From an uncultured Candidatus Sumerlaeota bacterium (GTDB lineage: Bacteria; Sumerlaeota; Sumerlaeia; MWCT01; JAGHBZ01): 64,000 bases of DNA. Numbering within the stretch: the stretch's first letter is position 1; the number at the start of each line of letters is the position of its first letter. The notes beneath the pieces are model-generated. The model was not told where the DNA came from. It saw only the letters and a list, made by a program, of their open reading frames with translations, and did not search any database. The translations under genes were made by a program, and so were the position numbers. Location: positions 1,076-65,075 of the forward strand of contig CAZSMK010000003.1 in assembly GCA_964608095.1 (NCBI GenBank), written 5' to 3'. Positions 3,863-20,175 of the stretch are shown here, piece after piece.

Positions 3863-3982
3863 ACCAGGGTCAGACCTTCAGTTTACAGTTTTACCTGCAA
3901 GACGATGGTGTTGATGACGGAAAGTAAAAAAATAAACAAACACTGTTATACTTAAACTGTAAACTGAAGGTCTGACCCCGGT
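3863..3982 (+). mobile_element. ~120-bp MITE/REPIN-like element, copy 1
   Basis: Inverted arms GGGTCAGACCTTCAGTTTACAGTTT ... AAACTGTAAACTGAAGGTCTGACCC around an A-rich core; recurs at 5658 and 20788; overlaps the mvhA 3' end. Confidence 0.85.
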
Positions 3983-5448
3983 AGGGTTTTTATAAGGTTT
4001 CCGTCTGCATCCCTGATGTTCGCAACCAACGGCATGTCGCCCGGTAAGGAATGTGTAGCGCAACCGAAACAGGGATCGTAGGCACGAAACGCCATCTCTA
4101 TCATGTTCAAAATAGGTTCGGTAACTTCCTTGCCTTTTTCGATAAAGGTTTCGGCTGCCTTTCGGATCGAAAGATTAAGCGCACCGTAATTGTTCGTAGT
4201 CCCGACGAGGAGATTCGCCTTTTTTACGATTCCGTTTTCATCGGTCACATAATGATGAGTGAGCGTTCCCCGTGGCGCTTCAACGATTCCCACTCCCTCA
4301 GATGGTATCTCGGTGGGAATGGTGCGAATCTTATCGCTGGTGATTTCGGGGTCCGTGGCAAGTTCGAGCATACGTTCGCTGGCGTATAAGAGCTCAACCA
4401 ATCGAGCCCAGTGAGTGGCAAGGGTATGGTGAACCATTTTTTTACCGCTGGAATCACCGGTGATAGTCTGGAAAAATTCTTCATAGGCTTCCTGGGCGCG
4501 GGGTGTTGCCATCCCATCGGCGACGTTCAGCCGCGACAAGGGTGTCGCCCGGTAAATGCCGCTTTCCTTCCCATCCTTGAATCCTTGCCAGCCTATCTTT
4601 TTAAGGAACGGGAACTTGAGAAAGCTCCATGACTCGACATGTTCTGCAATGTGGTTGGTGTATTCGTCAGACGAGTAGGTGCAAAATTCGTGTCCTTCCG
4701 GGTCAACCACGCGTATCTTTCCGTCGTAAAAGTTGACTTTGTTATGACCATCCACCAATCCCATGTAATAGGTCTCATGGTAGTATGTGTCGCTGAGGAT
4801 GAGGTCTTTATAGCGAGGAATTGCCAGTACAAGGTCTTTGAAAGTCTGGATGCTGAAGAGAGAGAACTCAATAGCCCATCGAGCGATTTGCTCGACTTCG
4901 TCGCGTTCATCCTTGTTAAGTCCTTTCGACACGCCCCCGGGAAGGACACAAATGGGGTGACACTGTCGCGCCGCGAGTAGCTCGACAACGTGGTTGCATT
5001 TTTTTCGCATTTCGATAATGCGTGAGCCGGTCTCGACGCCGACCTTTTTTATAAGACCGAGGATGTTACGCTCGGCAACGGGTGCGTCAGCGCCGACAAT
5101 AAAATCCGGTGCCGCAAGGATATAAAAATGGGTCGTATGGTCGCTTGCGAAGAAGGCGGAGTAAGGGAGTTCGCGCAACTTTTTTGCGGCGGGAGGCGGA
5201 TCGACCTTGAAGACTGCGTCGACAGCTTTACCGGAAGCAATGTGATGAGCTTCCGGGCAGACGCCGCAGATGCGAGGTGTAATATGCGGGAGTTCCTCAA
5301 CGGGTCTGCCCTCGGCGAACTTTTCAAAGCCCCTGAGCTCGGGGATCTGGAAATAGGCGTTGGCAACCTCGCCTTCGTCGTCGAGAAAAATTTCAATTTT
5401 CCCGTGACCTTCGAGTCGTGTAACCGGATCGATAGATATCTTATGCAT
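3952..5448 (-). CDS. mvhA: [NiFe]-hydrogenase large subunit, group 3c (MvhA-like)
   Basis: TRLEGHGK; L1 motif RICGVC; EAPRG; L2 motif RAYDPCFGCATH followed by a cleavable C-terminal tail; mvhD/mvhG/hdr context. Confidence 0.93.
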   Translation of the reverse strand: MHKISIDPVTRLEGHGKIEIFLDDEGEVANAYFQIPELRGFEKFAEGRPVEELPHITPRICGVCPEAHHIASGKAVDAVFKVDPPPAAKKLRELPYSAFFASDHTTHFYILAAPDFIVGADAPVAERNILGLIKKVGVETGSRIIEMRKKCNHVVELLAARQCHPICVLPGGVSKGLNKDERDEVEQIARWAIEFSLFSIQTFKDLVLAIPRYKDLILSDTYYHETYYMGLVDGHNKVNFYDGKIRVVDPEGHEFCTYSSDEYTNHIAEHVESWSFLKFPFLKKIGWQGFKDGKESGIYRATPLSRLNVADGMATPRAQEAYEEFFQTITGDSSGKKMVHHTLATHWARLVELLYASERMLELATDPEITSDKIRTIPTEIPSEGVGIVEAPRGTLTHHYVTDENGIVKKANLLVGTTNNYGALNLSIRKAAETFIEKGKEVTEPILNMIEMAFRAYDPCFGCATHSLPGDMPLVANIRDADGNLIKTLPGSDLQFTV

Positions 5449-5781: not shown

Positions 5782-8142
5782 TTATGGCATCTTGAGATCG
5801 ACGACGCGGCTTTTTCCCATGGTCTGTATCTGGAGCGAGACCTTTTCCTTTTCCGATTCCTGTGCGGCATTGATCTTCTGCTCGAAATCTTGCGCGCCTT
5901 TAAGTGGCTCGTTGTCAAGGCTTGTTATAATTTCATAGGGCTTTATTCCTGCAACAGAAGCAGGGGTTCCCGTTTCTACCTTGTCAACGACAACGCCTGA
6001 AACCTCCGGCGCCACTTTCATAGCAGCACGCACCTCGTACGTGAGGTCTTTGACTGTCAAGCCGATGTCGTCGTCTTTAAATTTTGCAGCGCTGTCGAAA
6101 TCGGGCGGTGCGGTTTCTACAACTACTTTTTTCGACTCGCCTTTCCCGTCGGAATAATAATTCAACGTAATCTCGGTTCCCTCGCCGAGGGTATCCAGTA
6201 GACCGGTAAGATAATTTTTTCTTGTTCGCCACGGTTTCTTTTCCGGCATTGAAAGCCCGAATGCTTCAAGCGCTTTGGGAATTTGTCCCTGTCCCATATC
6301 GAATTCCTCGAATTCATTTTGTGGAGGACGCAGTTCGATAGGATATCGTTTCTTCTTTTTCTCGATACTGAGCAGAATATCGCCGGGCTTCAATGGAATT
6401 TTCTCAGCGGGTGAACCGGCATACACCTGGCTGATAGTCAAACCGATCTCGCCGTCTTTAGTAGGTTTTTCGACTTCGAGGTTCTTTGCAAGTTCGCGGT
6501 TCATGGGTGAATACTCGATCCCGAGCCAGAGCTTTTGTTTCTCTTCTTCTTTTGTGAGAGGTTTAATACGAGGGTCGAGAGATTCATCCGGCTGAAGGAT
6601 TGCCTCTTTGACATCTACCAGGGAGACAAGGTCATCGTACCCGCCGGGTCTGAACCATTTCTCTTTCTCGAACATTTCCGAGCCATAATCGTCACGTTGA
6701 CCAAGGTATTGTTTTATCTCTTCGTCTTCTTTGCGAGTTTTGAGAAAAAGCCCAATAATTTTACCCTCCGTATTGAGGACAAAATCGCCTCTCATTATTT
6801 CGCCGTAGAGATTCCACGTATACTTATCCTCATAGGATTTAGCCCTGTCATAACAGCGGAAATGGCTGCAAATGACATACTTTTCGCCGAATTTCTTCTC
6901 GGCATGGAGTGAGAAATAGGGTGAAAAAGGTTGGACGGGCTCAAACGTAAGGAGTTCCGCGGCATTGGGAAGCGTGGTGTCATCGTTCACCCGCACAAGA
7001 TATGCGGCGAAATCCTTATAAGTCCCGGCATACGTCCCTTCCACTTCCTCTTCTTCGGAGAGATAGAGGGTAACCGACTTAATCTTGGCTGCTTGCTTTC
7101 TCCCGATGAAGTGGGGTACGAGGAGAGTGTTATGGTTTATAGCCAGCCCGTAATGTTCGATATCTTCGAACTTTTCGCCGCCATAGCCGAACATGCGATA
7201 CAGTGAACCCCAGACGCCGCCCTCGTCCTCGGAATCGGTTCCCTGGCGAAGTTCTATTTTGACGCGATAAAGAAAGGGTTCGAACCGTTTCTTCATGTCG
7301 TTGAGATATGAGAAATACTCGTCGCGAGAGATTTTCCAGGCGTTTTTGAGCGACTCACCTTTCCAGATAACATTTCGTTCGTTCCAGTCGATAAAGGACG
7401 ATGACGCCACACCTACAGGTGAGTATTCTGAATCAAGCACAGCAGAGAGCGAGAAGAGCGTGTTAAGCATGGAATGATAGTAACCGGAGACCAGTCCCCA
7501 TATATTCATGGGGACATAAATCTGCACGGTCGGCTGTTCCTCTTCAAAGGGACCGATACCGGGACCAACAAACGACACGTTAAGGAGAGTTTGTTCGAGT
7601 TTTTTGTTGGCGTTCACCGCCGTGAAAAAGAATTGTGATGGAGGGACATCCGGGAGTGTGGTAAAATCGAGCGGTTTAAGCGGTTCAGCTTCCTGGAGAT
7701 TTTTGGGCATAATTAGGAGCACAGGCGCCTTGACCATGATGCCGGCAATTTCTCCCTCGATAGACTTGTCGGAACCGGGAAGGTCAATGGTCACGTGGTC
7801 GAGATGGCGAAGGTCGAAGCAAGGATCGAAGAGCATGCAATGTTTTTGGTCGTCGATGACGAAACCCACGAGGTCGAGTGATGTTTTTTCTTCTGCAAAG
7901 TTACGGTATATTTCCTTTTCGCCGTCCAGTTCGCTGGGTTTATCATCGGGCAAAATTTTCCAGAAAAGATGCACCTTTACCATAGAATTCTGGAGAACGT
8001 CGCGCACATTTTGGATGACCACAGGAGAAGGTGCGGCTAAATCCTGTGCTGGCGCACGCGACGCTACTATGGGTAACCCAATTAAAATCGCCACTACTAT
8101 GCAGATTATGTTTCCCCTCATTTTCCTATTCCTCCTCGTCAT
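5782..8142 (-). CDS. Exported PDZ-domain protein with probable degenerate trypsin-like domains
   Basis: Signal peptide; two PDZ domains (LWLGIEY...GSPAEK...KPGDIL; IGLTVK...GTPASVAGIKPYEII); no GNSGG catalytic motif. Confidence 0.7.
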   Translation of the reverse strand: MTRRNRKMRGNIICIVVAILIGLPIVASRAPAQDLAAPSPVVIQNVRDVLQNSMVKVHLFWKILPDDKPSELDGEKEIYRNFAEEKTSLDLVGFVIDDQKHCMLFDPCFDLRHLDHVTIDLPGSDKSIEGEIAGIMVKAPVLLIMPKNLQEAEPLKPLDFTTLPDVPPSQFFFTAVNANKKLEQTLLNVSFVGPGIGPFEEEQPTVQIYVPMNIWGLVSGYYHSMLNTLFSLSAVLDSEYSPVGVASSSFIDWNERNVIWKGESLKNAWKISRDEYFSYLNDMKKRFEPFLYRVKIELRQGTDSEDEGGVWGSLYRMFGYGGEKFEDIEHYGLAINHNTLLVPHFIGRKQAAKIKSVTLYLSEEEEVEGTYAGTYKDFAAYLVRVNDDTTLPNAAELLTFEPVQPFSPYFSLHAEKKFGEKYVICSHFRCYDRAKSYEDKYTWNLYGEIMRGDFVLNTEGKIIGLFLKTRKEDEEIKQYLGQRDDYGSEMFEKEKWFRPGGYDDLVSLVDVKEAILQPDESLDPRIKPLTKEEEKQKLWLGIEYSPMNRELAKNLEVEKPTKDGEIGLTISQVYAGSPAEKIPLKPGDILLSIEKKKKRYPIELRPPQNEFEEFDMGQGQIPKALEAFGLSMPEKKPWRTRKNYLTGLLDTLGEGTEITLNYYSDGKGESKKVVVETAPPDFDSAAKFKDDDIGLTVKDLTYEVRAAMKVAPEVSGVVVDKVETGTPASVAGIKPYEIITSLDNEPLKGAQDFEQKINAAQESEKEKVSLQIQTMGKSRVVDLKMP

Positions 8143-9586
8143 AGTCTTTGCGGTAATCGAGCACTATCCATTTTTTATAACCGCTTCGCAATAGTTCTAA
8201 AAGAACCTTTTTTTCACGCTTGGTATCTTCCATAATGGTATTGTAGAGAGTTTTGATATCTTCGAGGCTGTTGATTTCCTGTCGGTCGATGCTGAGGATG
8301 ATATCGTTGGTATGCAATCTGGCATTGGCTGCATTGCCGGGATATTTCACCCCCTGAATAAACACGCCCTGTTTCTTGTAAAAAAAGTGTTCGGGATTCT
8401 TGAACTTGTTGATCTCTTTGACAGTCATATCCCATCGCTCGAGGTCGAAATCCTCTCCCTCGACCTTGCCCTTGAGAACGGGCGTAATAGAAAAGCTGGT
8501 TAAGGAATCACCGCGCTGAATATTGAAAATGGAGGGAGAGTCAACAGGCAAATCTGCAAGAAGCCAGCGAATTTGCGGGAGGTCTTCTGCGTACAGACCC
8601 ATAATGGGTGTGTTATTGACGGCGAGGAGTAAATCTCCGGACTTGACGCCTGCTTCCCGTGCAGGTGAATTTTTGTCCACGTCGGAGATCAAGACACCGC
8701 GCTCCGCATCGATAAAGGTGTTCGAATAGAAGTCGTTAAGGGGTTGAAGTTGCAAGCCGGACCAGGCTCGCATTACTTCCTCGTTCTTCTTCAACCGTTC
8801 GACGATATCCCGGACGACATTGGACGGAATGGCAAACCCGATGTTCTCACCGATTATCATCATACCAAGGGTATTGATGCCGACGATTTTGCCTTCGGTA
8901 TTAACGAGTGGGCCGCCGCTGTTGCCCGGATTTATTGCCGCGTCTGTCTGCAACCAGACGTTGTATTTGTAAATGCTTTCGAACCCGAGATAGCGGGTAG
9001 TGTTGGATATAATCCCGAGGGAGATGGAGCGTGTGAAGCCGAACGGTGCGCCGAGCGCCATGACAAACTGCCCCTCCTCGAGGTTGCCTGAATCGGCAAA
9101 TTCAGCGTAGGGAAGAGTCTGGCTTTCCGTCCCGTAATCGAGTTTCAATAACGCCAGGTCGGTCTCAGGGTCTCTGCCTATAAGAGTTGCATCCACCTGC
9201 TTCTTGTTCCACAGCACACAGTTTATGACAAGCGATTTTTCCACCACGTGGTTATTCGTGACTACATAGCCATCCGGACTGATAATCACACCGGAGCCGA
9301 AGACCCTTTGCTTTTTCTTCTCGCCGCTTTCGTATTCTTCCACAATAGGCTTTACGAAGACAAGCGCGGGAAACACTTTGCGCTTTGCGGTTTCAATAAC
9401 TTCCTCGAAGTTTATATTCCGGGGAACCGTTTGAGAGGAAGAAACAAGAACCGTTCTGCTGCATGAAAAGAGAAATAGTGAGACAATGCAAAGACCCATT
9501 ATCGCAGAAAAAGAACGTATGCGGTGTTTGCCTTTACGGTTTTTGAATCTATTGTTGTGCAATGAAATCATAACTTTATCCTTCAT
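8126..9586 (-). CDS. HtrA/DegP-family serine endoprotease with PDZ domains, possible lipoprotein
   Basis: GSGVII, TNNHVV (His), TDLALL (Asp), DAAINPGNSGGPL (Ser); C-terminal PDZ domains; 'LFSC' lipobox-like. Confidence 0.9.
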   Translation of the reverse strand: MKDKVMISLHNNRFKNRKGKHRIRSFSAIMGLCIVSLFLFSCSRTVLVSSSQTVPRNINFEEVIETAKRKVFPALVFVKPIVEEYESGEKKKQRVFGSGVIISPDGYVVTNNHVVEKSLVINCVLWNKKQVDATLIGRDPETDLALLKLDYGTESQTLPYAEFADSGNLEEGQFVMALGAPFGFTRSISLGIISNTTRYLGFESIYKYNVWLQTDAAINPGNSGGPLVNTEGKIVGINTLGMMIIGENIGFAIPSNVVRDIVERLKKNEEVMRAWSGLQLQPLNDFYSNTFIDAERGVLISDVDKNSPAREAGVKSGDLLLAVNNTPIMGLYAEDLPQIRWLLADLPVDSPSIFNIQRGDSLTSFSITPVLKGKVEGEDFDLERWDMTVKEINKFKNPEHFFYKKQGVFIQGVKYPGNAANARLHTNDIILSIDRQEINSLEDIKTLYNTIMEDTKREKKVLLELLRSGYKKWIVLDYRKDYDEEE

Positions 9587-11135: not shown

Positions 11136-12917
11136 TCATACATCTCCTAAAATACCTTTTATTTCAGCGAGAATTTGTTGATCGGTAAAATGTTTGCCCT
11201 TGATACAAGCCTGTGGGCACGCCGCCACACATGTGCCGCACCCTTTACATAGTGCGGCGTTCACACGGGAGACTTTCTTTTCCCGGTCGAACTCGATAGC
11301 GGAATAAGGACAAAGGGCATTGCAGATTCGGCATCCTGAGCAGCGTTCTTCATCGATTTCGGCAACGGCGGCGTCGAGTTCCACGAATCCGCGGCTGATA
11401 AGAGAAAGCACCTGAGCAGCGGCAGCAGCGCCCTGGGCAACGGCATCGGGGATGTCTTTGGGTCCCTGGCAACATCCCGCTATAAACACGCCATCCGTGT
11501 TGGTCGAGACAGGAGCGAGTTTCGGATGGCGTTCAAGGAAAAATCCGTCGGGACTCAAGCCGCATGACACCAAGCGGCTGACTTCTTTTGTGTCGTGACG
11601 GCTTTTAAGCGCTGCACATAACACCACCATATCCACGGGTATGCGTCGAATAGTTCCTGCAAGTGTATCTTCGCATCGTACTATAAGTTTACCCTTCTCA
11701 GCAGGCGTCATGGCGTAATCGGAAATTTCACCTACTTTACCACGGACGAAGCGCACACCCTCGTCAAGAAGCCGATGGTAAAACTCCTCGTACCCTTTGC
11801 CGAAGCAGCGAAGGTCTATATACATGTCATAGACTTCTGCATCGGTCTTATCCTTGAGCAGGTGAGCGTATTTCAGGGCATACATGCAACAGACGCGTGA
11901 ACAATATTCAAAATAATGTTTATCCCTGCTACCCACACAGTGAACAATCGCCACGGACTCAGGTTTCTTTCCATTCGCAAGCAGAATCTTTCCCCCTGTA
12001 GACCCTTCTGCGCAATTCATTCGTTCGAATTCAAGTGCGGTCAAAACGTTGGGATAACGTCCGTACCCGTATTGCTCGATAACGGAGGGGTCAAATTGAT
12101 CGTAACCCGTGGCAATGACGATATTGCCGACGTTGAATGTGACCTCTTCGTCTTTCTGGTCGAAATCAATGGCATCAGCGGGACAAATATCCCGGCAATG
12201 ACCACACCCACCGGTGCGAAGCCGAATGCAATGGCTGGCATCGATAAAGGGGACATTCGGCACTGCCTGGAGAGTGGGCACGCGCACTGCAGTTGCCGGA
12301 CCCAGCTGGATTTCGTCGTGAATAACTTCTCGTTGAGCGATGTCCTCGATCGTAATGGCGCCGGTAGGGCATACGTGAGCACATGCGCCGCATAGTATAC
12401 ACGCCTCAGACTCTTCATTGAAGGGTGTAGTGACTTCACGGGAGCCATCGGAAGTGGCGAATCCGATAGCCGATGCGCCGACTACTTCTTCGCACACTCG
12501 CACGCACAAACCGCAAAGAATGCATTTTTCATCAGGCTCATCCGGGGGAAAAGGGGAATCGATGACACCGTATTCAGCGGCAAGGCGGCGTACCTGCTCG
12601 GAGCCCGGCGCACGGGCAAGAAGCAATTCAAGTATGGTCTTTCGAATTTCATGTACTCGTTCGTTGGAGGTATGTATGATCATATCCGTCATAATGGGGT
12701 AGTTACATGCGGTAACAATACGCCGACGTTTGCCCCGCACCACCTCGACAGAACAAACGCGGCAGGAGGCGTAGGGTTCTATGAGGTTACTGTGGCAGAG
12801 CGTGGGAATCCTGATGCCGAGTTTATCGGCTGCTTCAACCACCGTGGTTCCGCGCTCAACTTGAAGCTCATAACCATCAATAACGACGTTGACCTTGTTC
12901 ACGTCATTGGCGCCCAT
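11136..12917 (-). CDS. Fusion: NuoG-like N-terminal [2Fe-2S]+2x[4Fe-4S] module joined to the C-terminal half of HdrA
   Basis: IPTLC...CRVC...TAC; CILCGLCVRVC; CILCGACAHVCP; then HdrA motifs QAVP, IVIATG, LEFERM, HCVGSRD, YCSRVCCMYALK, GCCQGPKDIP and a C-terminal 2x[4Fe-4S] domain. Confidence 0.88.
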   Translation of the reverse strand: MGANDVNKVNVVIDGYELQVERGTTVVEAADKLGIRIPTLCHSNLIEPYASCRVCSVEVVRGKRRRIVTACNYPIMTDMIIHTSNERVHEIRKTILELLLARAPGSEQVRRLAAEYGVIDSPFPPDEPDEKCILCGLCVRVCEEVVGASAIGFATSDGSREVTTPFNEESEACILCGACAHVCPTGAITIEDIAQREVIHDEIQLGPATAVRVPTLQAVPNVPFIDASHCIRLRTGGCGHCRDICPADAIDFDQKDEEVTFNVGNIVIATGYDQFDPSVIEQYGYGRYPNVLTALEFERMNCAEGSTGGKILLANGKKPESVAIVHCVGSRDKHYFEYCSRVCCMYALKYAHLLKDKTDAEVYDMYIDLRCFGKGYEEFYHRLLDEGVRFVRGKVGEISDYAMTPAEKGKLIVRCEDTLAGTIRRIPVDMVVLCAALKSRHDTKEVSRLVSCGLSPDGFFLERHPKLAPVSTNTDGVFIAGCCQGPKDIPDAVAQGAAAAAQVLSLISRGFVELDAAVAEIDEERCSGCRICNALCPYSAIEFDREKKVSRVNAALCKGCGTCVAACPQACIKGKHFTDQQILAEIKGILGDV

Positions 12918-12997
12918 GACCGCGCTCCTCGCTCTCTTCTTACCTTATCTTTTTGAAACATTGTTGAACCGACTGTTGTATCAAAATACATCTTTCA

Positions 12998-14683
12998 TTA
13001 TCCTGCCCGCATCCGGCAAACGTGAGCGGGGCATTCTTTATCGTTGAGGTGCGATTCGTACTCCTCTTTAAAATAGCGAAAGGTACTCAAAAAAGGAATC
13101 GGTGCGGCGACGCCGAAACCGCAGAGCGACGCATCTCGCATCGTAGACGATAACCGCAGGAGTGTATCTATATCCTTTTGTTCGCCTTTTCCATCACAGA
13201 TACGATGAAGAATGCGTGCCATCTGAAACAAGCCCTCCCTGCATGGGGTACATTTGCCGCATGACTCGTTTTTAAGGGCATCGATGCAGTAACGGGCATA
13301 ATCGACCATGCACACATCCTCGTCAATGACAAGGAGGCTCCCAGAACCAAGCGCCACACCTTTTTCAATAAACCTGTCAAAATCAACGGGTAAATAGAGT
13401 AAATTCTCCGGTATGACGTAGCCGTAAATTCCGCCAAGCTGGACGGCTTTGAAGGCTTTTCCGTCGGTAATACCACCGCCGATGTCGTAAATAATGTCGC
13501 GAAGGGTAACGCCCATAGGAACTTCTATAATGCCGGAATTGAGAACAGCGCCGGCAAGTGAAAAGACCTTTGTCCCGCTGCTCAAATCTGCCGAATAGTC
13601 AAAACCATTCTTCGATGCTGTAGACTTGAACCATTTCGACCCGTGCAGGATTATGCCGGGCACGTTCGCCCATGTCTCGGTACAGTTAATGTTAGTTGGT
13701 TTATCGAATAGACCTTTTTCGATGACGTTTGAATATTCGCTACGCGGCTCAGGTGCTCCGCCCTCGAGAAAGGAAACGAGGGCGGAAGGGTGATTCAACA
13801 TGAGAGCGCCGTTGCTCCGGCGTAGCTCAATATCAAAATTAAACGGGTGCCCCAGAATACCGGTTCCCAGGTATCCTTTTTCACGTGCTTGTTCAATCGC
13901 TTTTTTAATCCGTCCCGGGAGGGCTTTATCATAATCGGGCAGACAGATGAATCCCTTTTGCGCGCCGATAGCAAAGGCGCCTATAATCATTCCCTCGATA
14001 ACACCGTGCGGATTCGATTCTATAAGGGCGAGCCCTATGGATGCAACCGAGCGTCCATCTTCTGTGGTGCAGACAAGGTACCGCTCACCGTTTCCCGCAT
14101 TTCGGCACGCTTCCCATTTAATGGCGGTAGGGAATCCGCCGCCGCCTCGACCGCGCAAGCCGGAGTCTTTAATTTCACGTAACACCGTTTCAGGTGTCAT
14201 CGAGGTTACCGCCCTTGCCAGCGCCTTGTACCCATCATGTGCTATATAATCATCGATAGAATCGGGATTAATATCGTAACAATTCTTCGTCACCACGAGT
14301 TTTTGTTCTTTTAAACTTTCATGGCTCTCGATTTGGAATTTGCCCTTTTCCTGAGTTTCTCCCTGTTTTGTATCCGGCTTGCGGGAAAATGTATCAAGAA
14401 TCTTATCGCTTCCTTTTACATGATACACCGAAGGTGAATATACGCCGGTACGATAGTTGTCCCCGGGTTGAAGTTTAAATGCCTTATAAACGGAAGCAAT
14501 GTGGTAGAGCTTGTTGAGGGGGAGATTCAGTGAAAGGGCAACTTTTTCAAGCGCAGCTCGCGGGAGATATGCAAACTCTTCCTGTATGTCGTACAGGATT
14601 TCTATGAGATAGCGCTCTTTCATTTCCCATTTGTTCAGGATAGAATCGAGAGTTTCCATGTTGAACCCGCTGGCAACACTCAT
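12998..14683 (-). CDS. Degenerate NuoE-NuoF (HydC/HydB-like) fusion flavoprotein
   Basis: NuoE-like N-terminus (LIEILYDIQEEFAYLP); SGLRGRGGGGFPT; ETWANVP; SLBB domain; ESCGKCTPCREG...SLCG [4Fe-4S]; several canonical motifs altered. Confidence 0.85.
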   Translation of the reverse strand: MSVASGFNMETLDSILNKWEMKERYLIEILYDIQEEFAYLPRAALEKVALSLNLPLNKLYHIASVYKAFKLQPGDNYRTGVYSPSVYHVKGSDKILDTFSRKPDTKQGETQEKGKFQIESHESLKEQKLVVTKNCYDINPDSIDDYIAHDGYKALARAVTSMTPETVLREIKDSGLRGRGGGGFPTAIKWEACRNAGNGERYLVCTTEDGRSVASIGLALIESNPHGVIEGMIIGAFAIGAQKGFICLPDYDKALPGRIKKAIEQAREKGYLGTGILGHPFNFDIELRRSNGALMLNHPSALVSFLEGGAPEPRSEYSNVIEKGLFDKPTNINCTETWANVPGIILHGSKWFKSTASKNGFDYSADLSSGTKVFSLAGAVLNSGIIEVPMGVTLRDIIYDIGGGITDGKAFKAVQLGGIYGYVIPENLLYLPVDFDRFIEKGVALGSGSLLVIDEDVCMVDYARYCIDALKNESCGKCTPCREGLFQMARILHRICDGKGEQKDIDTLLRLSSTMRDASLCGFGVAAPIPFLSTFRYFKEEYESHLNDKECPAHVCRMRAG

Positions 14684-14744
14684 GCAAAAAACCTCCTGAT
14701 ACTCTATTCACGCCGATCACAGGCTGGTAAGATTTCGTAGAATA

Positions 14745-15611
14745 TTATTCCGATTTTTTAATCACTTTTCGTCCAAGCCTGACCACTCGTCTTCGGGGTG
14801 TGATGGTAACCGGACATTCGCCCCAGCACATCCCACACCCGGTGCATTTATCTATATCAACGTATCGTGGCTTTTTACGAACCGTTATTTCAAAATTACC
14901 AATAGAGCCGGAGACTTCCGAGACCTCGGAATACGTCATAAGTGCGATATTCTTATTTTTACCGACCGCTACCATTTTGGGTGTCAGGATACAAGCGGCA
15001 CAGTCGAGGGTGGGAAAGGTTTTATCGAACTCCGCCATGTGCCCGCCGATCGAGGGGTCGCGCTCGACAAGATATACTTTTTTACCGGCATCGGCGATAT
15101 CGAGCGCCGCCTGGATTCCCGCAATGCCGCCGCCGATAACGAGCGTAGCGGGATTTATATCAACCTTCATGGTCTCGAGCGGTTCGAGATAGATTGCCTT
15201 GTAAACAGCGGCGCTCAGGATTGACTTGGTTTTCTCGGTTGCTTTATGCGCATCCTCGGTCACCCATGAACAATGTTCGCGAATGTTCGCCTGCTGGAAA
15301 AGGTAGCGGTTCAACCCGGCTTCTTCGACAGCGGCGCGAAAAGTAGGTTCATGCATGAGGGGGGAACACGCCGCCACGACTATCCGGTTGAGTCCTTGTT
15401 CCCTGATGTCCTGTTTTATGAGTTCCTGTCCCGGCTCGGAACACATGAAGTGATAGTCACGCGCCAACGCCACGTGAGGGAGTGTCCGGGCGAACTTGAC
15501 GACGTCATCTATATCGACTACTCCCGCTATGTTGGTGCCGCAATGACATACATATACCCCTATTCGGATGTCATCTGCGGTCTCCTGTTGATGGTTTACA
15601 TCGTCTGCCAT
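14745..15611 (-). CDS. hdrA: Heterodisulfide reductase subunit A, N-terminal half
   Basis: IGVYVCHCGTNI, MCS, AACSP, NIREHCSWV, GGGIAG (FAD), DKTFPTLDC; ends after a single CTGCGMCWGECP motif with a TAA stop. Confidence 0.9.
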   Translation of the reverse strand: MADDVNHQQETADDIRIGVYVCHCGTNIAGVVDIDDVVKFARTLPHVALARDYHFMCSEPGQELIKQDIREQGLNRIVVAACSPLMHEPTFRAAVEEAGLNRYLFQQANIREHCSWVTEDAHKATEKTKSILSAAVYKAIYLEPLETMKVDINPATLVIGGGIAGIQAALDIADAGKKVYLVERDPSIGGHMAEFDKTFPTLDCAACILTPKMVAVGKNKNIALMTYSEVSEVSGSIGNFEITVRKKPRYVDIDKCTGCGMCWGECPVTITPRRRVVRLGRKVIKKSE

Positions 15612-15654: not shown

Positions 15655-16572
15655 TCATCGAGCCTTGACTGATTGGCGCAAGCCATATCGTTCGAGAACG
15701 CGCCTGGCTGATACAGCGAGGTGCTGGAATCCGAGTTTTTTCAGCGGTATGCCCAACGTCAATCCAATGATCTGAGTAAAATATAAAACGGGTAAATTGT
15801 ATTTCACATGAAACCGAGCTTCAACCTTGTGCTGATAGACATCCAGATTGAACTGACAGAGTGGACACGGTGTCATAATACACTCGGCGCCGGCTTCCTT
15901 CGCACAGTCGAGAATATCCTTAATCAGGACTAAGGCGACATCCGGGGAAGAACCGATAAGAGAGGCGCCGCAACATTTCACTTTCATTGGGAACTCGATA
16001 GCCTCGCCTCCCAGAGCGTTTACCATCTTTTCCATCTCGTTCGGCAACTCCAGATGCTCGTATAGTCCGAAAGGTCGCACCATCTGGCATCCATAATAGG
16101 TTGCGATTTTCAGTCCACCGAGATCGCGCTTTTGCGCTTTATTTAGTCCTTCAGTACCCACATCGCTCATAATGGTCTCAAAAAGATGGCGCACCCTGAG
16201 TGTTCCTTTATAGTCAAGTCCCGCCGCTGCAAGTATCGTCTTTAACTTTCGTCTGAGCTCAGGGTATTCCTGAAAGTATTGATTGGTTTTGTGGAGTACA
16301 AGATAACAAGCGCTGCATGGCGTGACCACATCTCGCCCGAACTGTTCAGCCATGGCAAGATTACGGCTCGAGATAGCGAAGGAGACGAGCTCCTTGACGG
16401 ACATGTAGGTCGTTGCACCGCAGCAATTCCAATCGTCGAGCTCTATCAACGTAATGCCCAGTTTTTCAGTGATGGCTTCGATTGATTTTTTATACCCGAT
16501 TCCGGTTGCCTCGAGTGAACATCCGGGATAAAAGGTGTATTCGAGAGGCTTTTTCTCTTTGTCGTTGTTCAT
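15655..16572 (-). CDS. hdrB: Heterodisulfide reductase subunit B
   Basis: Two CCG domains: YPGC...WNCCG...PCSAC and YYGC...CCGA...PCPLC. Confidence 0.93.
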   Translation of the reverse strand: MNNDKEKKPLEYTFYPGCSLEATGIGYKKSIEAITEKLGITLIELDDWNCCGATTYMSVKELVSFAISSRNLAMAEQFGRDVVTPCSACYLVLHKTNQYFQEYPELRRKLKTILAAAGLDYKGTLRVRHLFETIMSDVGTEGLNKAQKRDLGGLKIATYYGCQMVRPFGLYEHLELPNEMEKMVNALGGEAIEFPMKVKCCGASLIGSSPDVALVLIKDILDCAKEAGAECIMTPCPLCQFNLDVYQHKVEARFHVKYNLPVLYFTQIIGLTLGIPLKKLGFQHLAVSARRVLERYGLRQSVKAR

Positions 16573-16577
16573 GCCTT

Positions 16578-17147
16578 CTACTCCATCTGTTGCGCCTTTT
16601 TGATGATGGTTTTCAGTTGTTTCATATTCTTTATCCGTTTGGGCAATCCGGAAATACGGCGTCGTCGTAATAGGTTCAAAGCTACCGTAGAATTATACAG
16701 CATTGCCAGGGGATTGGTTTTGAGCATAAACAAAGTCATGAGAATCATCTCATGGTTTCTGCCGAACATGTTTACTAATCCTGCGAAAATTTTCGACATC
16801 TCCTGCGATTTATGTCCTTTTATATTGTTACCTTCTTCTATGGCGAGCTGTTTGAGGCCATACATAATATCCGTGATTTTTATCTCCTGAGGACATCTGA
16901 CATAACAGGTGTAACAGGATGAACACAGCCAAATGGTTTTGCTTTCGAGCACGCTGGTTTTCATCCCTGCGCGAACCATGGCGAATAACTTGCGCGGAGA
17001 GAAATCCATAAACGGGCTGGTCGGACACGAGCCGGAACAAGACCCGCATTGAATACAGTCCTTTATCTTTTCGCCGCCGGGTAGAGAGAAAACCTTGTGG
17101 ATAAAATTGAGGTCAAGGGCTTCTTCGAGGAGAATAGGGGATTCCAT
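16578..17147 (-). CDS. hdrC: Heterodisulfide reductase subunit C
   Basis: CIQCGSCSGSCP and IWLCSSCYTCYVRCP. Confidence 0.92.
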   Translation of the reverse strand: MESPILLEEALDLNFIHKVFSLPGGEKIKDCIQCGSCSGSCPTSPFMDFSPRKLFAMVRAGMKTSVLESKTIWLCSSCYTCYVRCPQEIKITDIMYGLKQLAIEEGNNIKGHKSQEMSKIFAGLVNMFGRNHEMILMTLFMLKTNPLAMLYNSTVALNLLRRRRISGLPKRIKNMKQLKTIIKKAQQME

Positions 17148-17397: not shown

Positions 17398-20175
17398 ATG
17401 TCTAAAAAGACTTTCATAGTCGGTGCAAAAACGCACAATTTGAAGAACGTGCAATGCTCGTTTCCTCACGGGAAGTTGACGGTACTGACGGGTGTGAGCG
17501 GCTCGGGCAAGTCATCACTGGCGTTCGATACTTTGTACGCGGAAGGTCAACGCCGGTATGTCGAGTCGCTCTCGACGTATGCGCGGCGTTTCATCGAGCG
17601 TATGCCGCGCCCACCCGTTGACCATGTCTATAATATTCAACCTGCCATTGCCATCGAGCAGAAAAACAAGGTGAAAAACGCACGTTCAACAGTGGGTACC
17701 GCAACAGAAATCACGGACTACCTCCGCTTGCTTTTCGCAAAGATCGGTACTGTAATGTGCACCGAATGTAACATTCCCGTCATTGAACATACGCCGGAGT
17801 CGGTGGTGGAAAATCTATTTCATATACTCGAACCGGGGGAGCGCTTCTACATTCTGGCGCCCCTCCATCCGGCACAAACCACTTCATTGAAATCTCTCAA
17901 AGAGGAGCTCATTCGAGCCGGGTATTATCGAGTGTTTATTGAGAACCGGATGGTCGATCTCATGGAGGAAGGGTTTCCGCGCAGAAAAAGAAAGGGGAGA
18001 ATCGGGGAAATCGCCGTCGTGGTCGATAGAATGGCGCTGAAGAATAATCAGCGTGCGCGGCTTACCGATTCGTTGCGAACTGCCTTTCAGATCGGTAAAG
18101 GTGTAGTCATTATCCAGCAGGTTGGAAAAAAACCGATGACCTTTCGAGCAGGACTTGTGTGCGACAGGTGCGGCCGGCACTACAAACGACCCGAGCCACT
18201 GGTCTTTTCGTTTTACAGTCCGTTGGGCGCGTGTCCTACGTGCCAGGGTTTCGGTCGTATAATCACCATAGATTATGACAAGGTGATTCCCGACCCGAAT
18301 CTTTCCTTGAACGAGGGAGCAATTGCGCCGTTTAATTTTCCCGCATTCGAGGAGATGTACGATTATATGCGGGACTCCACAAAGAAGGAAAAGATAGCGT
18401 GGGACACACCATGGAGAGACCTTGATGAGAACACCAAAAAACTTATCATCGAGGGAAAAGGCGATTGGTGCGGTATCAAGGGATTCTTTGGATGGCTTGA
18501 GAGTAAACGATATAAGGTACACTATCGGGTGATGTTATCGCGTTTCCGTGGGTATGTGCCTTGTCCGGATTGTGGAGGAACACGTCTGATAGCAGAAGCC
18601 CGGTCAGTGACCGTGGGTGGTAAGAACATCTCCGTTCTTTCTTCAATGAACATAAAGGATTTGCGAAAATGGTTTCAGGACTTCAAGCCAACGCGCGAAG
18701 AGAAGGCAACCGCCCAACGAATTCTTATAGAGATCCAAAACCGACTGAAATATCTCGATGACATCGGGCTCGGGTACCTGACACTGGAACGTCAAACGAG
18801 GACGCTCAGCGGGGGTGAGGCGCAACGCATTAACCTCGCTACAGCGCTTGGCAGTTCTTTAACAGACACCCTTTACGTGCTCGATGAACCCACGATAGGA
18901 TTACATCCCAGAGATACGGAGCGACTGCTTCGCGTGCTGAAACAGTTGAAAAAAATCGGCAACACGGTCGTGGTCGTGGAACACGATCCTGTCATAATCA
19001 GGGGCTCAGACAGGATAATCGATCTTGGACCGGGTGCAGGCGAACACGGCGGGAATATCGTCTATGAAGGAACAGTCAATAAGCTCAAAGAGTGCCGCAA
19101 CTCGATAACCGCACAATATCTCGATCATGCCCATCCGAAAACGTTACGTAAGACCGTGCGCAGGCCGCGAGGGTTTATCAATATTCAGGGAGCGCACGAG
19201 CATAACCTGCAAAGGATAAATGTCGACATCCCCCTGGGAGTATTCTGCTGCCTGACGGGCGTCAGCGGTTCCGGAAAATCCACGCTTGCCGAAGATATTC
19301 TATACGCCTCGTTTAGCAGGTATCGGCGTCAAGAACCGGTAGAGATGGGAGGGTGCGACGATGTCCGGGGGCTCGAGCAGGTTGACGACATGATCCTGGT
19401 GAATCAGAGTCCTTTAGGACGTTCCGCGCGTTCGAATCCGGCGACCTACACGAAAGCGTATGATGCGATTCGAAAATTGATGGCACAGACGCCGGAGGCA
19501 CGACGGCACAATATCACTCCATCCCACTTTTCTTTTAACGTTCCCGGCGGCAGATGCGAGGAATGTAAAGGTACGGGCACTATCACCATCGAGATGCAGT
19601 TTCTTGCCGATGTAGAGGTGGAATGTGAGAAGTGCGAGGGAAAACGGTTTAAAAAGAAAGTGCTCGATATTCTGTATAACGGGAAAAACATTCACGACAT
19701 CTTGAACATGACAGTTACGGAATCTATGGCGTTTTTTCAGAATTCCGGGGAAGTGGTGAAGGCATTAAGCCCACTGGTGGAGGTAGGGCTCGGTTATCTT
19801 CGGCTGGGACAAAATACGGCGACACTGAGCGGTGGAGAGGCGCAACGGCTGAAACTCGCCAGCTTTCTTATCCGCGCACTTTCTAACCGACAGTCACCAC
19901 ATGATTTCTTGATCTTCGATGAGCCTACTACAGGGCTTCACCCGGCTGACATTGACACACTCGTCAGGGTGTTGCATCTTCTGGTCGACAATGGTTACTC
20001 TATTCTCGTCATCGAACACAACCTCGATCTTATCGTTCACGCCGATTGGATAATCGACCTTGGACCCGAAGGAGGTGACGAGGGAGGAGAGGTCGTGTTC
20101 ACGGGCATTCCGCGTAAACTTCTCGATGTTCCTGCATCGTATACCGCCGAATACCTTTGCGAGGCGATTCAATAA
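17398..20175 (+). CDS. uvrA: Excinuclease ABC subunit A
   Basis: Two Walker A motifs (GVSGSGKS), two LSGGEAQR signatures, zinc fingers, 'AEGQRRYVESLS'. Confidence 0.95.
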   Translation: MSKKTFIVGAKTHNLKNVQCSFPHGKLTVLTGVSGSGKSSLAFDTLYAEGQRRYVESLSTYARRFIERMPRPPVDHVYNIQPAIAIEQKNKVKNARSTVGTATEITDYLRLLFAKIGTVMCTECNIPVIEHTPESVVENLFHILEPGERFYILAPLHPAQTTSLKSLKEELIRAGYYRVFIENRMVDLMEEGFPRRKRKGRIGEIAVVVDRMALKNNQRARLTDSLRTAFQIGKGVVIIQQVGKKPMTFRAGLVCDRCGRHYKRPEPLVFSFYSPLGACPTCQGFGRIITIDYDKVIPDPNLSLNEGAIAPFNFPAFEEMYDYMRDSTKKEKIAWDTPWRDLDENTKKLIIEGKGDWCGIKGFFGWLESKRYKVHYRVMLSRFRGYVPCPDCGGTRLIAEARSVTVGGKNISVLSSMNIKDLRKWFQDFKPTREEKATAQRILIEIQNRLKYLDDIGLGYLTLERQTRTLSGGEAQRINLATALGSSLTDTLYVLDEPTIGLHPRDTERLLRVLKQLKKIGNTVVVVEHDPVIIRGSDRIIDLGPGAGEHGGNIVYEGTVNKLKECRNSITAQYLDHAHPKTLRKTVRRPRGFINIQGAHEHNLQRINVDIPLGVFCCLTGVSGSGKSTLAEDILYASFSRYRRQEPVEMGGCDDVRGLEQVDDMILVNQSPLGRSARSNPATYTKAYDAIRKLMAQTPEARRHNITPSHFSFNVPGGRCEECKGTGTITIEMQFLADVEVECEKCEGKRFKKKVLDILYNGKNIHDILNMTVTESMAFFQNSGEVVKALSPLVEVGLGYLRLGQNTATLSGGEAQRLKLASFLIRALSNRQSPHDFLIFDEPTTGLHPADIDTLVRVLHLLVDNGYSILVIEHNLDLIVHADWIIDLGPEGGDEGGEVVFTGIPRKLLDVPASYTAEYLCEAIQ

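Follow-up and report, generated by a model that had tools for sequence, protein, structure and literature searches.

Among described enzymes, those closest to the system treated here are the MvhADG-HdrABC complexes of methanogens (5ODC, 8RVU and others), the FlxABCD-HdrABC proteins of sulfate reducers, the bifurcating Bfu family (HydABC, NiFe-HydABCSL, NfnABC and WorABCSL, 9MQX), class II benzoyl-CoA reductase (BCRII; BamBCDEFGHI), and HdrA9-11 of the anaerobic methanotrophic (ANME-1) archaea. The system itself is encoded on the minus strand of a 64,000-nt stretch (the window) of contig CAZSMK010000003.1 from an uncultured Candidatus Sumerlaeota bacterium (GCA_964608095.1), where heterodisulfide reductase subunit A (HdrA) is specified by two genes, the second of which is fused behind a NuoG-like iron-sulfur (Fe-S) module. 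In what follows, G000 is the genome holding the window, other G numbers are related genomes, and L numbers are compared loci; P0001 is the hdrA N-half, P0002 the NuoE/F-like protein, and P0003 the fusion of the NuoG-like part with the HdrA C-half. Taken as a whole, the locus is probably best explained by a two-chain HdrA carrying BfuA clusters on its exit arm, with the Bfu core reduced to a bound relic.

The locus shares with methanogen MvhADG-HdrABC the HdrA domain set, all cofactor ligands, the Glu and Lys near the flavin adenine dinucleotide (FAD), the CCG domains of HdrB, HdrC, MvhD, and the group-3c-type [NiFe] hydrogenase subunits. It differs in that HdrA consists of two polypeptides, a BfuA-type three-cluster module is present at the break, Bfu core genes lie in the operon, the bacterial host gives no sign of using coenzyme M or coenzyme B, and vhuA is displaced by two genes. 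HdrABC-Mvh complexes are dimers. In FlxABCD-HdrABC an NADH-linked module is likewise joined to HdrABC via an MvhD-like protein, but Flx proteins are not known to be of the HydBC type, nor is a split HdrA or a hydrogenase known there. Within the Bfu family the N-terminal module of P0003 is nearest to WorA/BfuA and the core of P0002 to HydB/BfuB, and relatives of the window possess full BfuB and BfuC genes, often together with HydS-type regulators. By comparison with that family, half an HdrA here replaces the catalytic C-terminal domain of BfuA, and the window's BfuBC core is without the defining cofactor set.

BCRII also unites a flavoprotein of the HdrA type with an MvhD-like adaptor, a subunit resembling HdrBC, and the HydABC/Bfu-type BamGHI in one complex, Bam-Bfu being described as two bifurcation modules in series (Schut 2022, PMC9304861; 10.64898/2026.04.10.717634). 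In those accounts BamE is a single chain (a fused HdrA dimer), BamI is a separate subunit feeding the C-terminal ferredoxin domain of BamE, low-potential electrons leave through the inserted ferredoxin domain for the tungsten enzyme BamBC, and a hydrogenase is lacking. Here, in contrast, BfuA belongs covalently to the inserted domain, and the system includes a [NiFe] hydrogenase. ANME-1 HdrA9-11 are described with an NfnB-like insertion at the same HdrA site, that is, with an NAD(P)H-linked module on the low-potential arm (Chadwick 2022, PMC9012536); theirs is a single in-chain domain, whereas here the chain is broken and the graft has several subunits.

HdrA is divided between two polypeptides

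HdrA consists of two polypeptides, and the cut falls within the inserted ferredoxin domain, in the loop that separates its two Cys motifs. A preliminary description of the window had hdrA as two genes, and open reading frames (ORFs) with exactly those boundaries are present (14745-15611 and 11136-12917). When aligned to HdrA of PDB 5ODC, P0001 matches chain A residues 3-262 (E 1.5e-104) and P0003, from approximately residue 199, matches about 263-652; the NCBIfam HdrA2 profile is covered in succession by P0001 (1-259), P0003 (263-640), and MvhD (P0004; 647-773). The two halves are complementary on the methanogen structure and tile it without a gap, and the substantial overlap or large gap that would have pointed to two independent paralogue fragments was not found. 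The sole overlap (5ODC 245-262, 18 reference residues) arises from the last BfuA-type motif CILCGACAHVCP (P0003 173-184), which resembles the first HdrA motif; it is through this motif that the phmmer alignment of P0003 to HdrA begins at residue 172, the match being one of motifs and not of a duplicated segment.

The position of the break is also as first described: P0001 ends 21 residues past motif A, CTGCGMCWGECP, and the HdrA portion of P0003 carries motif D, CIRLRTGGCGHCRDICP (residues 230-246), which aligns to the second motif of 5ODC_A. P0001 comprises the N-terminal cluster domain, the first part of the FAD-binding, thioredoxin reductase (TrxR)-like domain with its GxGxxG (Rossmann part, residues 156-193), motif A, and the 21-residue tail. 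The C-half carried by P0003 consists of motif D, the rest of the FAD domain with the Glu and Lys, the CSRVCC cluster site, and the C-terminal 2x[4Fe-4S] ferredoxin domain; the FAD domain is shared by the two chains. The N-terminal [4Fe-4S] ligands and DCxxC cysteines of HdrA, identified by alignment to 5ODC_A (C22, C24, C57, and C82; C204 and C207), and C256/259/262/266 of motif A are invariant in 13 N-half orthologues. All motif Cys of P0003 are invariant in 14 C-half orthologues, as are E296/E298 (LEFERM) and K349 (CCMYALK), the Glu and Lys previously noted as retained, whose roles near the FAD we presume from work on 5ODC. The flavin features of a bifurcating HdrA, GxGxxG and the nearby Glu and Lys, are present but spread over the two chains. 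The two ferredoxin domains do not share one polypeptide, since the motifs of the inserted domain are on separate chains (P0001 256-266 and P0003 230-245), and all 16 Cys are present.

Comparison with relatives strongly supports the view that P0001 and P0003 reassemble as one HdrA, and equally that motifs A and D jointly bind both clusters of the inserted ferredoxin domain. The product would be a two-chain variant of bifurcating HdrA, predicted to work in an HdrA-like manner. Assembly of the chains in trans, as the preliminary description proposed, is strongly implied because the two-gene arrangement is conserved in many lineages and one-chain relatives exist, of which L027 is an example. The latter (831 aa) corresponds to P0001 14-286 (60% identity, gapless, including the motif A tail), a linker of about 85 residues, and P0003 132-590 (50%), giving the one-chain order motif A, two BfuA-type 4Fe-4S motifs, motif D. 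Because L027 keeps all of these on one polypeptide, such unsplit chains provide natural evidence that motifs A and D probably belong to one domain, with an extra ferredoxin unit inserted between them. BLAST extends through the L027 linker (315-367 against P0003 72-131) with few identities, and homology of this segment was not relied upon.

The module in front of the HdrA C-half is of the BfuA type

Fusion of the HdrA C-half behind a NuoG-like Fe-S module is borne out by P0003 residues 8-201, the best match of which is the BfuA/NuoG-like chain 9mqx_A (E 8e-45), the small BfuA subunit of the bifurcating WorABCSL enzyme. The module possesses a 2Fe-2S site (C41, C52, C55, C71) and two 4Fe-4S motifs (C132-C142 and C173-C183), all 12 Cys being invariant in 14 orthologues. 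The place of the HxxxCxxC motif for the His-ligated cluster of NuoG/HydA is occupied by LLARAPGSE, as in 9mqx_A; Pfam detected Fer2_4 and Fer4_Nqo3 in P0003, and NADH-G_4Fe-4S_3 was not detected. P0003 has in consequence the N-terminal module of the BfuA subtype without the His-ligated cluster, which is described for Wor-, Bam-, and F420-Bfu (Schut 2022, PMC9304861). Respiratory NuoEFG has a 2Fe-2S cluster in NuoE, FMN with an NADH site and N3 in NuoF, and N1b, N4, N5, and a C-terminal Mo-pterin-like domain in NuoG; of these the NuoG-like part is without N5 and the C-terminal domain.

The initial term "NuoEFG-like" holds as a resemblance to NuoG and NuoEF, but we assign the module to the HydABC/Bfu type. 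The P0002 core is closest to the HydB/BfuB chains of bifurcating hydrogenases and to Nfn/Stn-type enzymes (E 1e-133 to 1e-115), whereas respiratory Nqo1 gives only E 7e-77.

P0002 is a reduced BfuC-BfuB fusion

A NuoE/F-like ORF lies between the hdrA halves (12998-14683), as first reported. Residues 1-124 of P0002 are a BfuC/NuoE-like helical part without Cys, joined in frame to a BfuB/NuoF core (125-561). The C-terminus of BfuC is missing, as are the first ~110 residues of BfuB (the N-terminal 2Fe-2S domain) and its C-terminal 2x[4Fe-4S] ferredoxin domain, the Cys of which are all lost. The Cys of the BfuC (C1) cluster are all replaced (VC.GTAC to VYSPSVY), and the CLGCC segment is gone. An alignment of 15 BfuB orthologues, which left out L035, L038, L043, and the genus-mates of G008 and G022 (G006 and G016), contains 161 invariant columns; P0002 keeps 102, and 59 are changed or missing. 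The motif changes include NADEGDPG to TTEDGRSV (N206T, D208E, E209D, D211R, P212S, G213V), GE to NH (G297N, E298H), NNVET to NCTET (N334C, V335T), and GGPSGG to GGIYGY, and almost every conserved residue of the FMN/NAD pocket is lost. Retained are the four Cys of the [4Fe-4S] site beside the flavin pocket and the GRGGGGF loop; Pfam still finds NADH_4Fe-4S and Complex1_51K, the latter with 78 bits against 160 bits in G001. Relative to its relatives, the window also lacks six regulator genes and a small 2Fe-2S protein. The set that defines a BfuBC core (flavin mononucleotide (FMN), six Fe-S clusters, reactivity with NAD(H) and ferredoxin) is incomplete in P0002 and, by sequence, complete in the relatives.

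The accelerated change is confined to this gene. The BfuB core of G000 shares 50-57% identity with every orthologue, compared with 62-77% among the orthologues, and the BfuC part is 34-43% identical to the others, compared with 50-65% among them. HdrA(N) of G000 diverges normally (74-79% identity to G001 and G002), the fusion protein is 72% identical to that of G001, and its BfuA part is not accelerated. Among the matches listed, no relative built like P0002 was found, the best other protein having 56% identity at 77% coverage and none exceeding 86% coverage. No second BfuB homologue and no HydS homologue were found in G000, which is 96% complete. The PF01512 hits in this genome (C96, C75, and C32), considered as a replacement BfuB, matched over only ~110 residues with 26-33% identity, and are presumably RnfC-like.

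The preliminary description envisaged NuoEFG-like parts in an H2-fed complex, with NAD+ among the acceptors to be assayed, and for this copy the proposal does not stand: P0002 is truncated, and with the 2Fe-2S Cys, the terminal cluster domains, and the FMN/NAD motifs lost, it is predicted to be no working NADH module, so NAD(H) coupling in this organism is unlikely. H2-dependent NAD+ reduction is plausible for relatives with intact genes. The contrary possibility, that P0002 functions as a flavoprotein in a complex coupling the reduction of disulfide, ferredoxin, and NAD+ to H2 oxidation here, finds some encouragement in the intact ORF, the two Pfam domains, the GRGGGGF loop with the 4Fe-4S Cys, and a confident predicted interface (see below), which may stem from likeness to solved complexes. 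Set against the halved Complex1_51K score, the 59 of 161 invariant positions changed or missing (mostly in FMN/NAD motifs), the absent BfuC cluster Cys, the deleted ferredoxin-reactive and 2Fe-2S domains, and a rate acceleration restricted to the P0002 gene, it appears very improbable.

Modeling of P0003[1-215] with P0002 gave a complex score of 0.85, the best of three controls scoring 0.00. Of 80 solved complexes, 58 reach the mark in use, as do 2 of 110 mismatched pairs; these counts are only approximate here since custom alignments were used. The runs share at least 95% of contacts, and the pLDDT (predicted local distance difference test) of the partner is at least 81. On P0002 the predicted contacts fall on two retained stretches, the N-terminal helices resembling BfuC (42-65) and the helix bundle of the 4Fe-4S site (471-520). 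In the BCRII preprint the N-terminal helical bundle of BamG engages BamI (10.64898/2026.04.10.717634). As HydABC-type complexes have been solved, the score suggests a preserved interface likeness and is no demonstration that this copy binds.

It may also be asked whether P0002 is a decaying, pseudogene-like remnant outside any complex, in which case HdrA(N), BfuA::HdrA(C), HdrBC, and MvhD/VhuAG would assemble alone. The strong rate acceleration and the loss of cofactor sites and regulators would agree with this, as would the dropping of BfuB in other lineages, namely the re-fused HdrAs of L027/L028 without bfuCB and L051 without bfuB between the halves. A pseudogene produced by frameshift was considered, and no frameshift is seen, the ORF being continuous. 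In neutral, substitution-only simulations, which ignore indels, the 561-codon frame remained stop-free in 121 of 1000 runs at 10% extra amino-acid divergence, and in only 31 of 1000 at 17%. P0002 keeps the parts that contact BfuA and all four Cys of its one remaining 4Fe-4S site, and its invariant sites have changed less often than the average site (45 of 147 aligned invariant sites, compared with ~43% of all sites). These observations make a free-decaying remnant improbable, and a relic kept as a scaffold or short Fe-S wire is considerably the more probable of the two.

The split and fused architecture is widespread

The BfuA::HdrA(C) fusion is a widespread, conserved, and unnamed family, in which the window copy is the exception. 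The gene order hdrA(N)...nuoG::hdrA(C), for which a genome search had been suggested, is present in many lineages. The fused gene with a separate upstream N-half gene occurs in 8 of 40 other genomes among the relatives; with a junction-spanning query (P0003 1-260), 9 of 75 genomes of the phylum gave the fusion, one of them being G000. A scan of other phyla, using one genome per species, gave at least 592 confirmed relatives and 79 retained loci, 14 of which have the fusion with an upstream N-half. By record title these belong to Dehalococcoidia, Anaerolineae, Acidobacteriota, Candidatus Fischerbacteria, "Eubacteriales," and a Bathyarchaeum metagenome-assembled genome. A collection of 5.8 billion proteins contains 1936 that match P0003 1-330 at E <= 1e-30. 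Of these 1936, the best 119 other than P0003 are all fusions and cover at least 93% of the query, and 117 have a length of 582-597 aa. Their sources call them nothing more than "heterodisulfide reductase subunit A," "4Fe-4S binding protein," or "(2Fe-2S)-binding protein," and the organism labels include Aminicenantes, Calditrichaeota, Neomarinimicrobiota, and Sumerlaeota/Sumerlaeia.

Separate full-length BfuC (150-202 aa) and BfuB (594-644 aa) are encoded in 20 of 20 other loci with bfuB between the halves (the 8 relatives, L030-L039, L043, and L057). In the nearest relative, G001 (L020), Pfam analysis reveals that the interval from hdrA(N) to the fusion starts with DRTGG, HATPase, HydS-like [FeFe]-hydrogenase-type, DRTGG/HPr-kinase-N, PHP, and HATPase proteins, followed by BfuC (156 aa), a small thioredoxin-like 2Fe-2S protein, and a 604-aa BfuB with both the N-terminal 2Fe-2S and the C-terminal 2x[4Fe-4S] domain. 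Homologues of all these genes are found in L033 and L034 in unchanged order. A HydS-type sensor/kinase/phosphatase set is typical of HydABC operons. The fusion family resembles a HydABC-type operon whose HydA has exchanged its H-cluster domain for the C-terminal two thirds of HdrA, and its intact members look like tandem Mvh-Hdr-Bfu complexes. [FeFe]-hydrogenase genes of sensory group C and of group A3 are described as usually lying in one cluster in a paper on Hydrogenedentota. A second, more distant BfuA::HdrA paralogue is present in G002:C374, G016:C180, and G022:C370 as ORFs of 588-1091 aa with 43-49% identity over P0003 6-258.

Other forms occur at the same HdrA loop. The re-fused L027 and L028 (915 aa) lie between hdrCB and mvhD-vhuG, without bfuCB. 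L051 (8631-11752) encodes a 430-aa HdrA(N)::BfuC fusion (2Fe-2S_thioredx at 282-427, 2Fe-2S Cys intact) directly followed by the BfuA::HdrA(C) gene, with no bfuB between, and appears to represent one more reduced variant of the module. More than one loss of the Bfu core seems to have occurred (G000; L027/L028; L051), which suggests that the core is dispensable. The 1161-aa bacterial HdrA of L097 contains, like ANME-1 HdrA, an NfnB/GltD-like insert (Fer4_20 and Pyr_redox_2, residues 321-711) at this loop; the HdrA genes of L090, L092, L097, L100, L103, and L085, coding for 1034-1161 aa, carry inserts of ~450 aa there. In L077:325-3167, L094:5661-8495, L095, and the second gene set of L032/L035, an unsplit hdrA stands beside a separate bfuA (225-241 aa), then bfuC and bfuB; that bfuA retains NADH-G_4Fe-4S_3, the His-ligated cluster domain, and is a different BfuA subtype. 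In many Dehalococcoidia loci hdrA is read as two ORFs with a break near residue 206/213, and mvhD with a break near 65/80. The broken hdrA loci are L041, L042, L044, L046, L048, L050, L058, L061, L067-L069, L075, L078, L099, and L105, and these breaks look like candidate in-frame selenocysteine codons, not real splits.

Proposed electron flow

In the intact family, as in methanogens, VhuAG and MvhD would pass electrons from H2 through the C-terminal ferredoxin domain of HdrA to its FAD. The high-potential branch would lead to HdrBC and a disulfide, and the low-potential branch through the two-chain inserted ferredoxin domain and the BfuA clusters to BfuBC, which would react with NAD(H) and ferredoxin; the net direction of flow is not readable from sequence. 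The window has lost the NAD(H) site, the domain reactive with ferredoxin, and five of the six BfuBC clusters, so that the reaction expected of its complex would be that of a plain H2:disulfide/ferredoxin bifurcating Mvh-Hdr, with no NAD(H) coupling, the P0002 relic staying bound as a scaffold or short Fe-S wire.

Placement of the BfuA-type clusters on the inserted-ferredoxin arm, the low-potential exit, has strong comparative support and would follow from chain topology: some 20 residues separate the last BfuA-type motif (PTG, 184-186) from the conserved LGP...QAVPNVP lead-in to motif D, and the same order is kept in unsplit relatives. The extra Fe-S wire that the preliminary description placed at this arm is favored by that topology; in BCRII, the one solved Hdr+Bfu supercomplex, BfuA is wired to the C-terminal ferredoxin domain, and the placement here would differ from it. 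Were the wiring BCRII-like, the BfuA-type clusters would contact the C-terminal ferredoxin domain and MvhD, on the input side, and Bfu, where intact, would supply electrons from NADH and reduced ferredoxin as an alternative donor next to the hydrogenase. In a dimeric HdrABC-Mvh, a module attached to one arm might extend to the other protomer. The preprint provides a precedent, with cluster I3 of BamI leading to E1/E2 in the Fd-like (ferredoxin-like) C-terminal domain of BamE and the MvhD-like BamF contacting BamI (10.64898/2026.04.10.717634). The 20-residue spacing, the unsplit relatives with the BfuA-type unit inside the inserted domain between A and D, and the NfnB-like NAD(P)H module hosted by the same site in other HdrAs argue the other way, and we consider such wiring unlikely.

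A further reading, which we put forward tentatively and hold to be somewhat less than evenly probable, is that the family constitutes an undescribed, widespread, tandem-bifurcating class (Mvh-Hdr-Bfu), in which the low-potential arm would be hard-wired via a two-polypeptide ferredoxin domain into a second bifurcating module, of the HydBC type. One particle, with wiring unlike BCRII, would then couple the oxidation of H2 with disulfide reduction and with the turnover of NAD(H)/ferredoxin, and the present genome would hold a "core-less" derivative.

Several points weigh against the explanation preferred here, a two-chain HdrA with exit-arm BfuA clusters and a bound relic. BamI, the BfuA of BCRII, is described as giving its electrons to the C-terminal and not the inserted ferredoxin domain of the HdrA-type subunit, and it is chain topology alone that puts the BfuA clusters on the low-potential arm. 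The glycine-rich flavin-site loop GLRGRGGGGFP is retained in P0002, and residual flavin binding is possible; the complex score may reflect memory of solved HydABC-type complexes; and, with 31 of 1000 neutral runs staying open, P0002 could be a young pseudogene. Finally, vhuA is separated from the remainder by two unrelated-looking genes and a 333-nt gap, and may be transcribed apart from it.

Gene order, assembly support, and neighboring genes

ORF analysis and profile searches give the minus-strand order hdrC-hdrB-hdrA(N)-bfuCB*-bfuA(N)::hdrA(C)-mvhD-vhuG-(htrA-pdz)-vhuA (Table 1). Upstream of hdrC lies the divergent uvrA (17398-20175). Between 3000 and 17600, 18 promoter-like sites were found where 16.9 were expected, and 11 terminator-like sites where 17.1 were expected; neither indicates operon limits. 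No RNA run was among those listed as containing the stretch, which does not bear on expression either way.

Table 1. Features of the split hdrA locus and their positions in the window
Feature	Coordinates	Strand	Basis
hdrC, 189 aa, 2x[4Fe-4S] motifs	16578..17147	-	NCBIfam CoB_CoM_SS_C E 3.4e-27, below curated cutoff; Pfam Fer4_8
hdrB, 305 aa, two CCG domains	15655..16572	-	Pfam CCG, two stretches, E 2e-29; NCBIfam HdrB E 4.8e-61, below cutoff
hdrA N-half (P0001), 288 aa	14745..15611	-	5ODC_A 3-262; HdrA2 profile 1-259
Motif A CTGCGMCWGECP, P0001 residues 256-267	14811..14846	-	aligns with 5ODC_A 245-256; invariant Cys
P0002, BfuC-BfuB relic fusion, 561 aa	12998..14683	-	profile and structure-sequence matches, orthologue alignments
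P0003, whole fusion, 593 aa	11136..12917	-	BfuA-type module plus HdrA C-half
P0003 BfuA/HydA-N-type Fe-S module, residues 1-200	12318..12917	-	9mqx_A E 8e-45; Fer2_4, Fer4_Nqo3
P0003 hdrA C-half, residues 201-593	11136..12317	-	5ODC_A ~263-652; HdrA2 profile 263-640
Motif D CIRLRTGGCGHCRDICP, P0003 residues 230-246	12180..12230	-	aligns with second motif of 5ODC_A; C230, C238, C241, C245 invariant
mvhD, 141 aa	10663..11088	-	Pfam FlpD E 3e-58; HdrA2 profile 647-773
vhuG/mvhG-like [NiFe] small subunit, 333 aa	9576..10577	-	NCBIfam VhuG E 3.4e-67, below cutoff; Pfam Oxidored_q6
HtrA/DegP-like serine protease gene	8126..9586	-	between vhuG and vhuA
PDZ-protein gene, 786 aa, signal-peptide-like start	5782..8142	-	between htrA-like gene and vhuA
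vhuA/mvhA-like [NiFe] large subunit, 498 aa	3952..5448	-	NCBIfam VhuA E 2.5e-114, below cutoff; PF00374

The hdrA split, or the fused nuoEF gene, might be suspected of being a misassembly or sequencing error of the metagenome bin, as the genome assembly consists of 144 contigs. A differently assembled, 4024-nt Logan contig covers 11065-15088 with 0 differences and bridges both gene junctions in two runs, providing the sequence support across the junctions that had been called for, though both runs may be the assembly's own source samples. An identical split is present in many independent assemblies, and the peculiarities of P0002 are dozens of point substitutions involving no join. An artefact can for practical purposes be discounted.

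Judged by profile matches, the operon encodes a group-3c-type [NiFe] hydrogenase (VhuA/G), MvhD, and HdrB/C. The feature set of group 3c (Mvh/Vhu) is present, the best NCBIfam hits being VhuA, VhuG, and VhuD, all below curated cutoffs, and the metal-binding motifs of VhuA, N-terminal RxCGxCxxxH and C-terminal DPCxxCxxH, are intact as RICGVCPEAHH and DPCFGCATH. The initial picture of MvhADG beside the split hdrA is correct for mvhD and vhuG, which directly follow the fusion gene, but not for vhuA, which lies apart (3952-5448) behind the htrA-like and PDZ genes. These two genes overlap their neighbors by 11 and 17 nt. The order vhuG-htrA-pdz-vhuA also occurs in G001 (L020), and mvhD-vhuG-vhuA is contiguous in L033, L034, and L039. 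In G001 vhuG is read as two overlapping ORFs (L020:4854-5824, residues 1-90 and 106-318 of the window protein), which may be due to a frameshift or sequencing error. Further Hdr clusters are present in G000 at C32:21788-28902, C94:36394-44836, and C29:37-8520; their genes include a 699-aa unsplit HdrA, two tandem-HdrA genes of ~1500 aa, and, ahead of a second mvhD-vhuG-vhuA set, a double HdrA of 1007 aa.

Literature and significance

Full-text literature searches, whose coverage did not extend to Appel et al. 2021 (BBA 1862:148379) or to the tables supplementing Schut et al. 2022, either of which could contain such a type, turned up no account of an HdrA that is split and joined to a Bfu/NuoEFG module; the preliminary description had likewise not recognized the architecture as characterized. 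The main text of the Bfu-family paper names HdrA only for Bam-Bfu (PMC9304861), and the Sumerlaeota genome paper, where it deals with these genes, handles them as ordinary mvhADG/hdrABC. The 2026 BCRII preprint states that two different bifurcation modules per complex have "not been previously reported" (10.64898/2026.04.10.717634).

If the proposed reading is true, the family would be a second and much more widespread case of two bifurcation modules in one complex, carried by Aminicenantes, Dehalococcoidia, Sumerlaeota-labelled, and other uncultured bacteria. Its wiring would be unlike that of BCRII, with Bfu on the exit arm of HdrA and a [NiFe] hydrogenase on the input. Hundreds of fusion proteins carry only the labels "heterodisulfide reductase subunit A" or "4Fe-4S binding protein," and as a result metabolic reconstructions treat them as plain MvhADG-HdrABC. 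The relevance to the bifurcation field is tempered by the fact that the window's own copy is a degraded member. Judging by the family, a 2x[4Fe-4S] ferredoxin fold can arise from two gene products, and the same HdrA loop appears to be a hot spot for grafted NAD(P)H-linked modules. The decayed BfuCB of the window would be a natural experiment in which parts of such a module are structural and which are dispensable.

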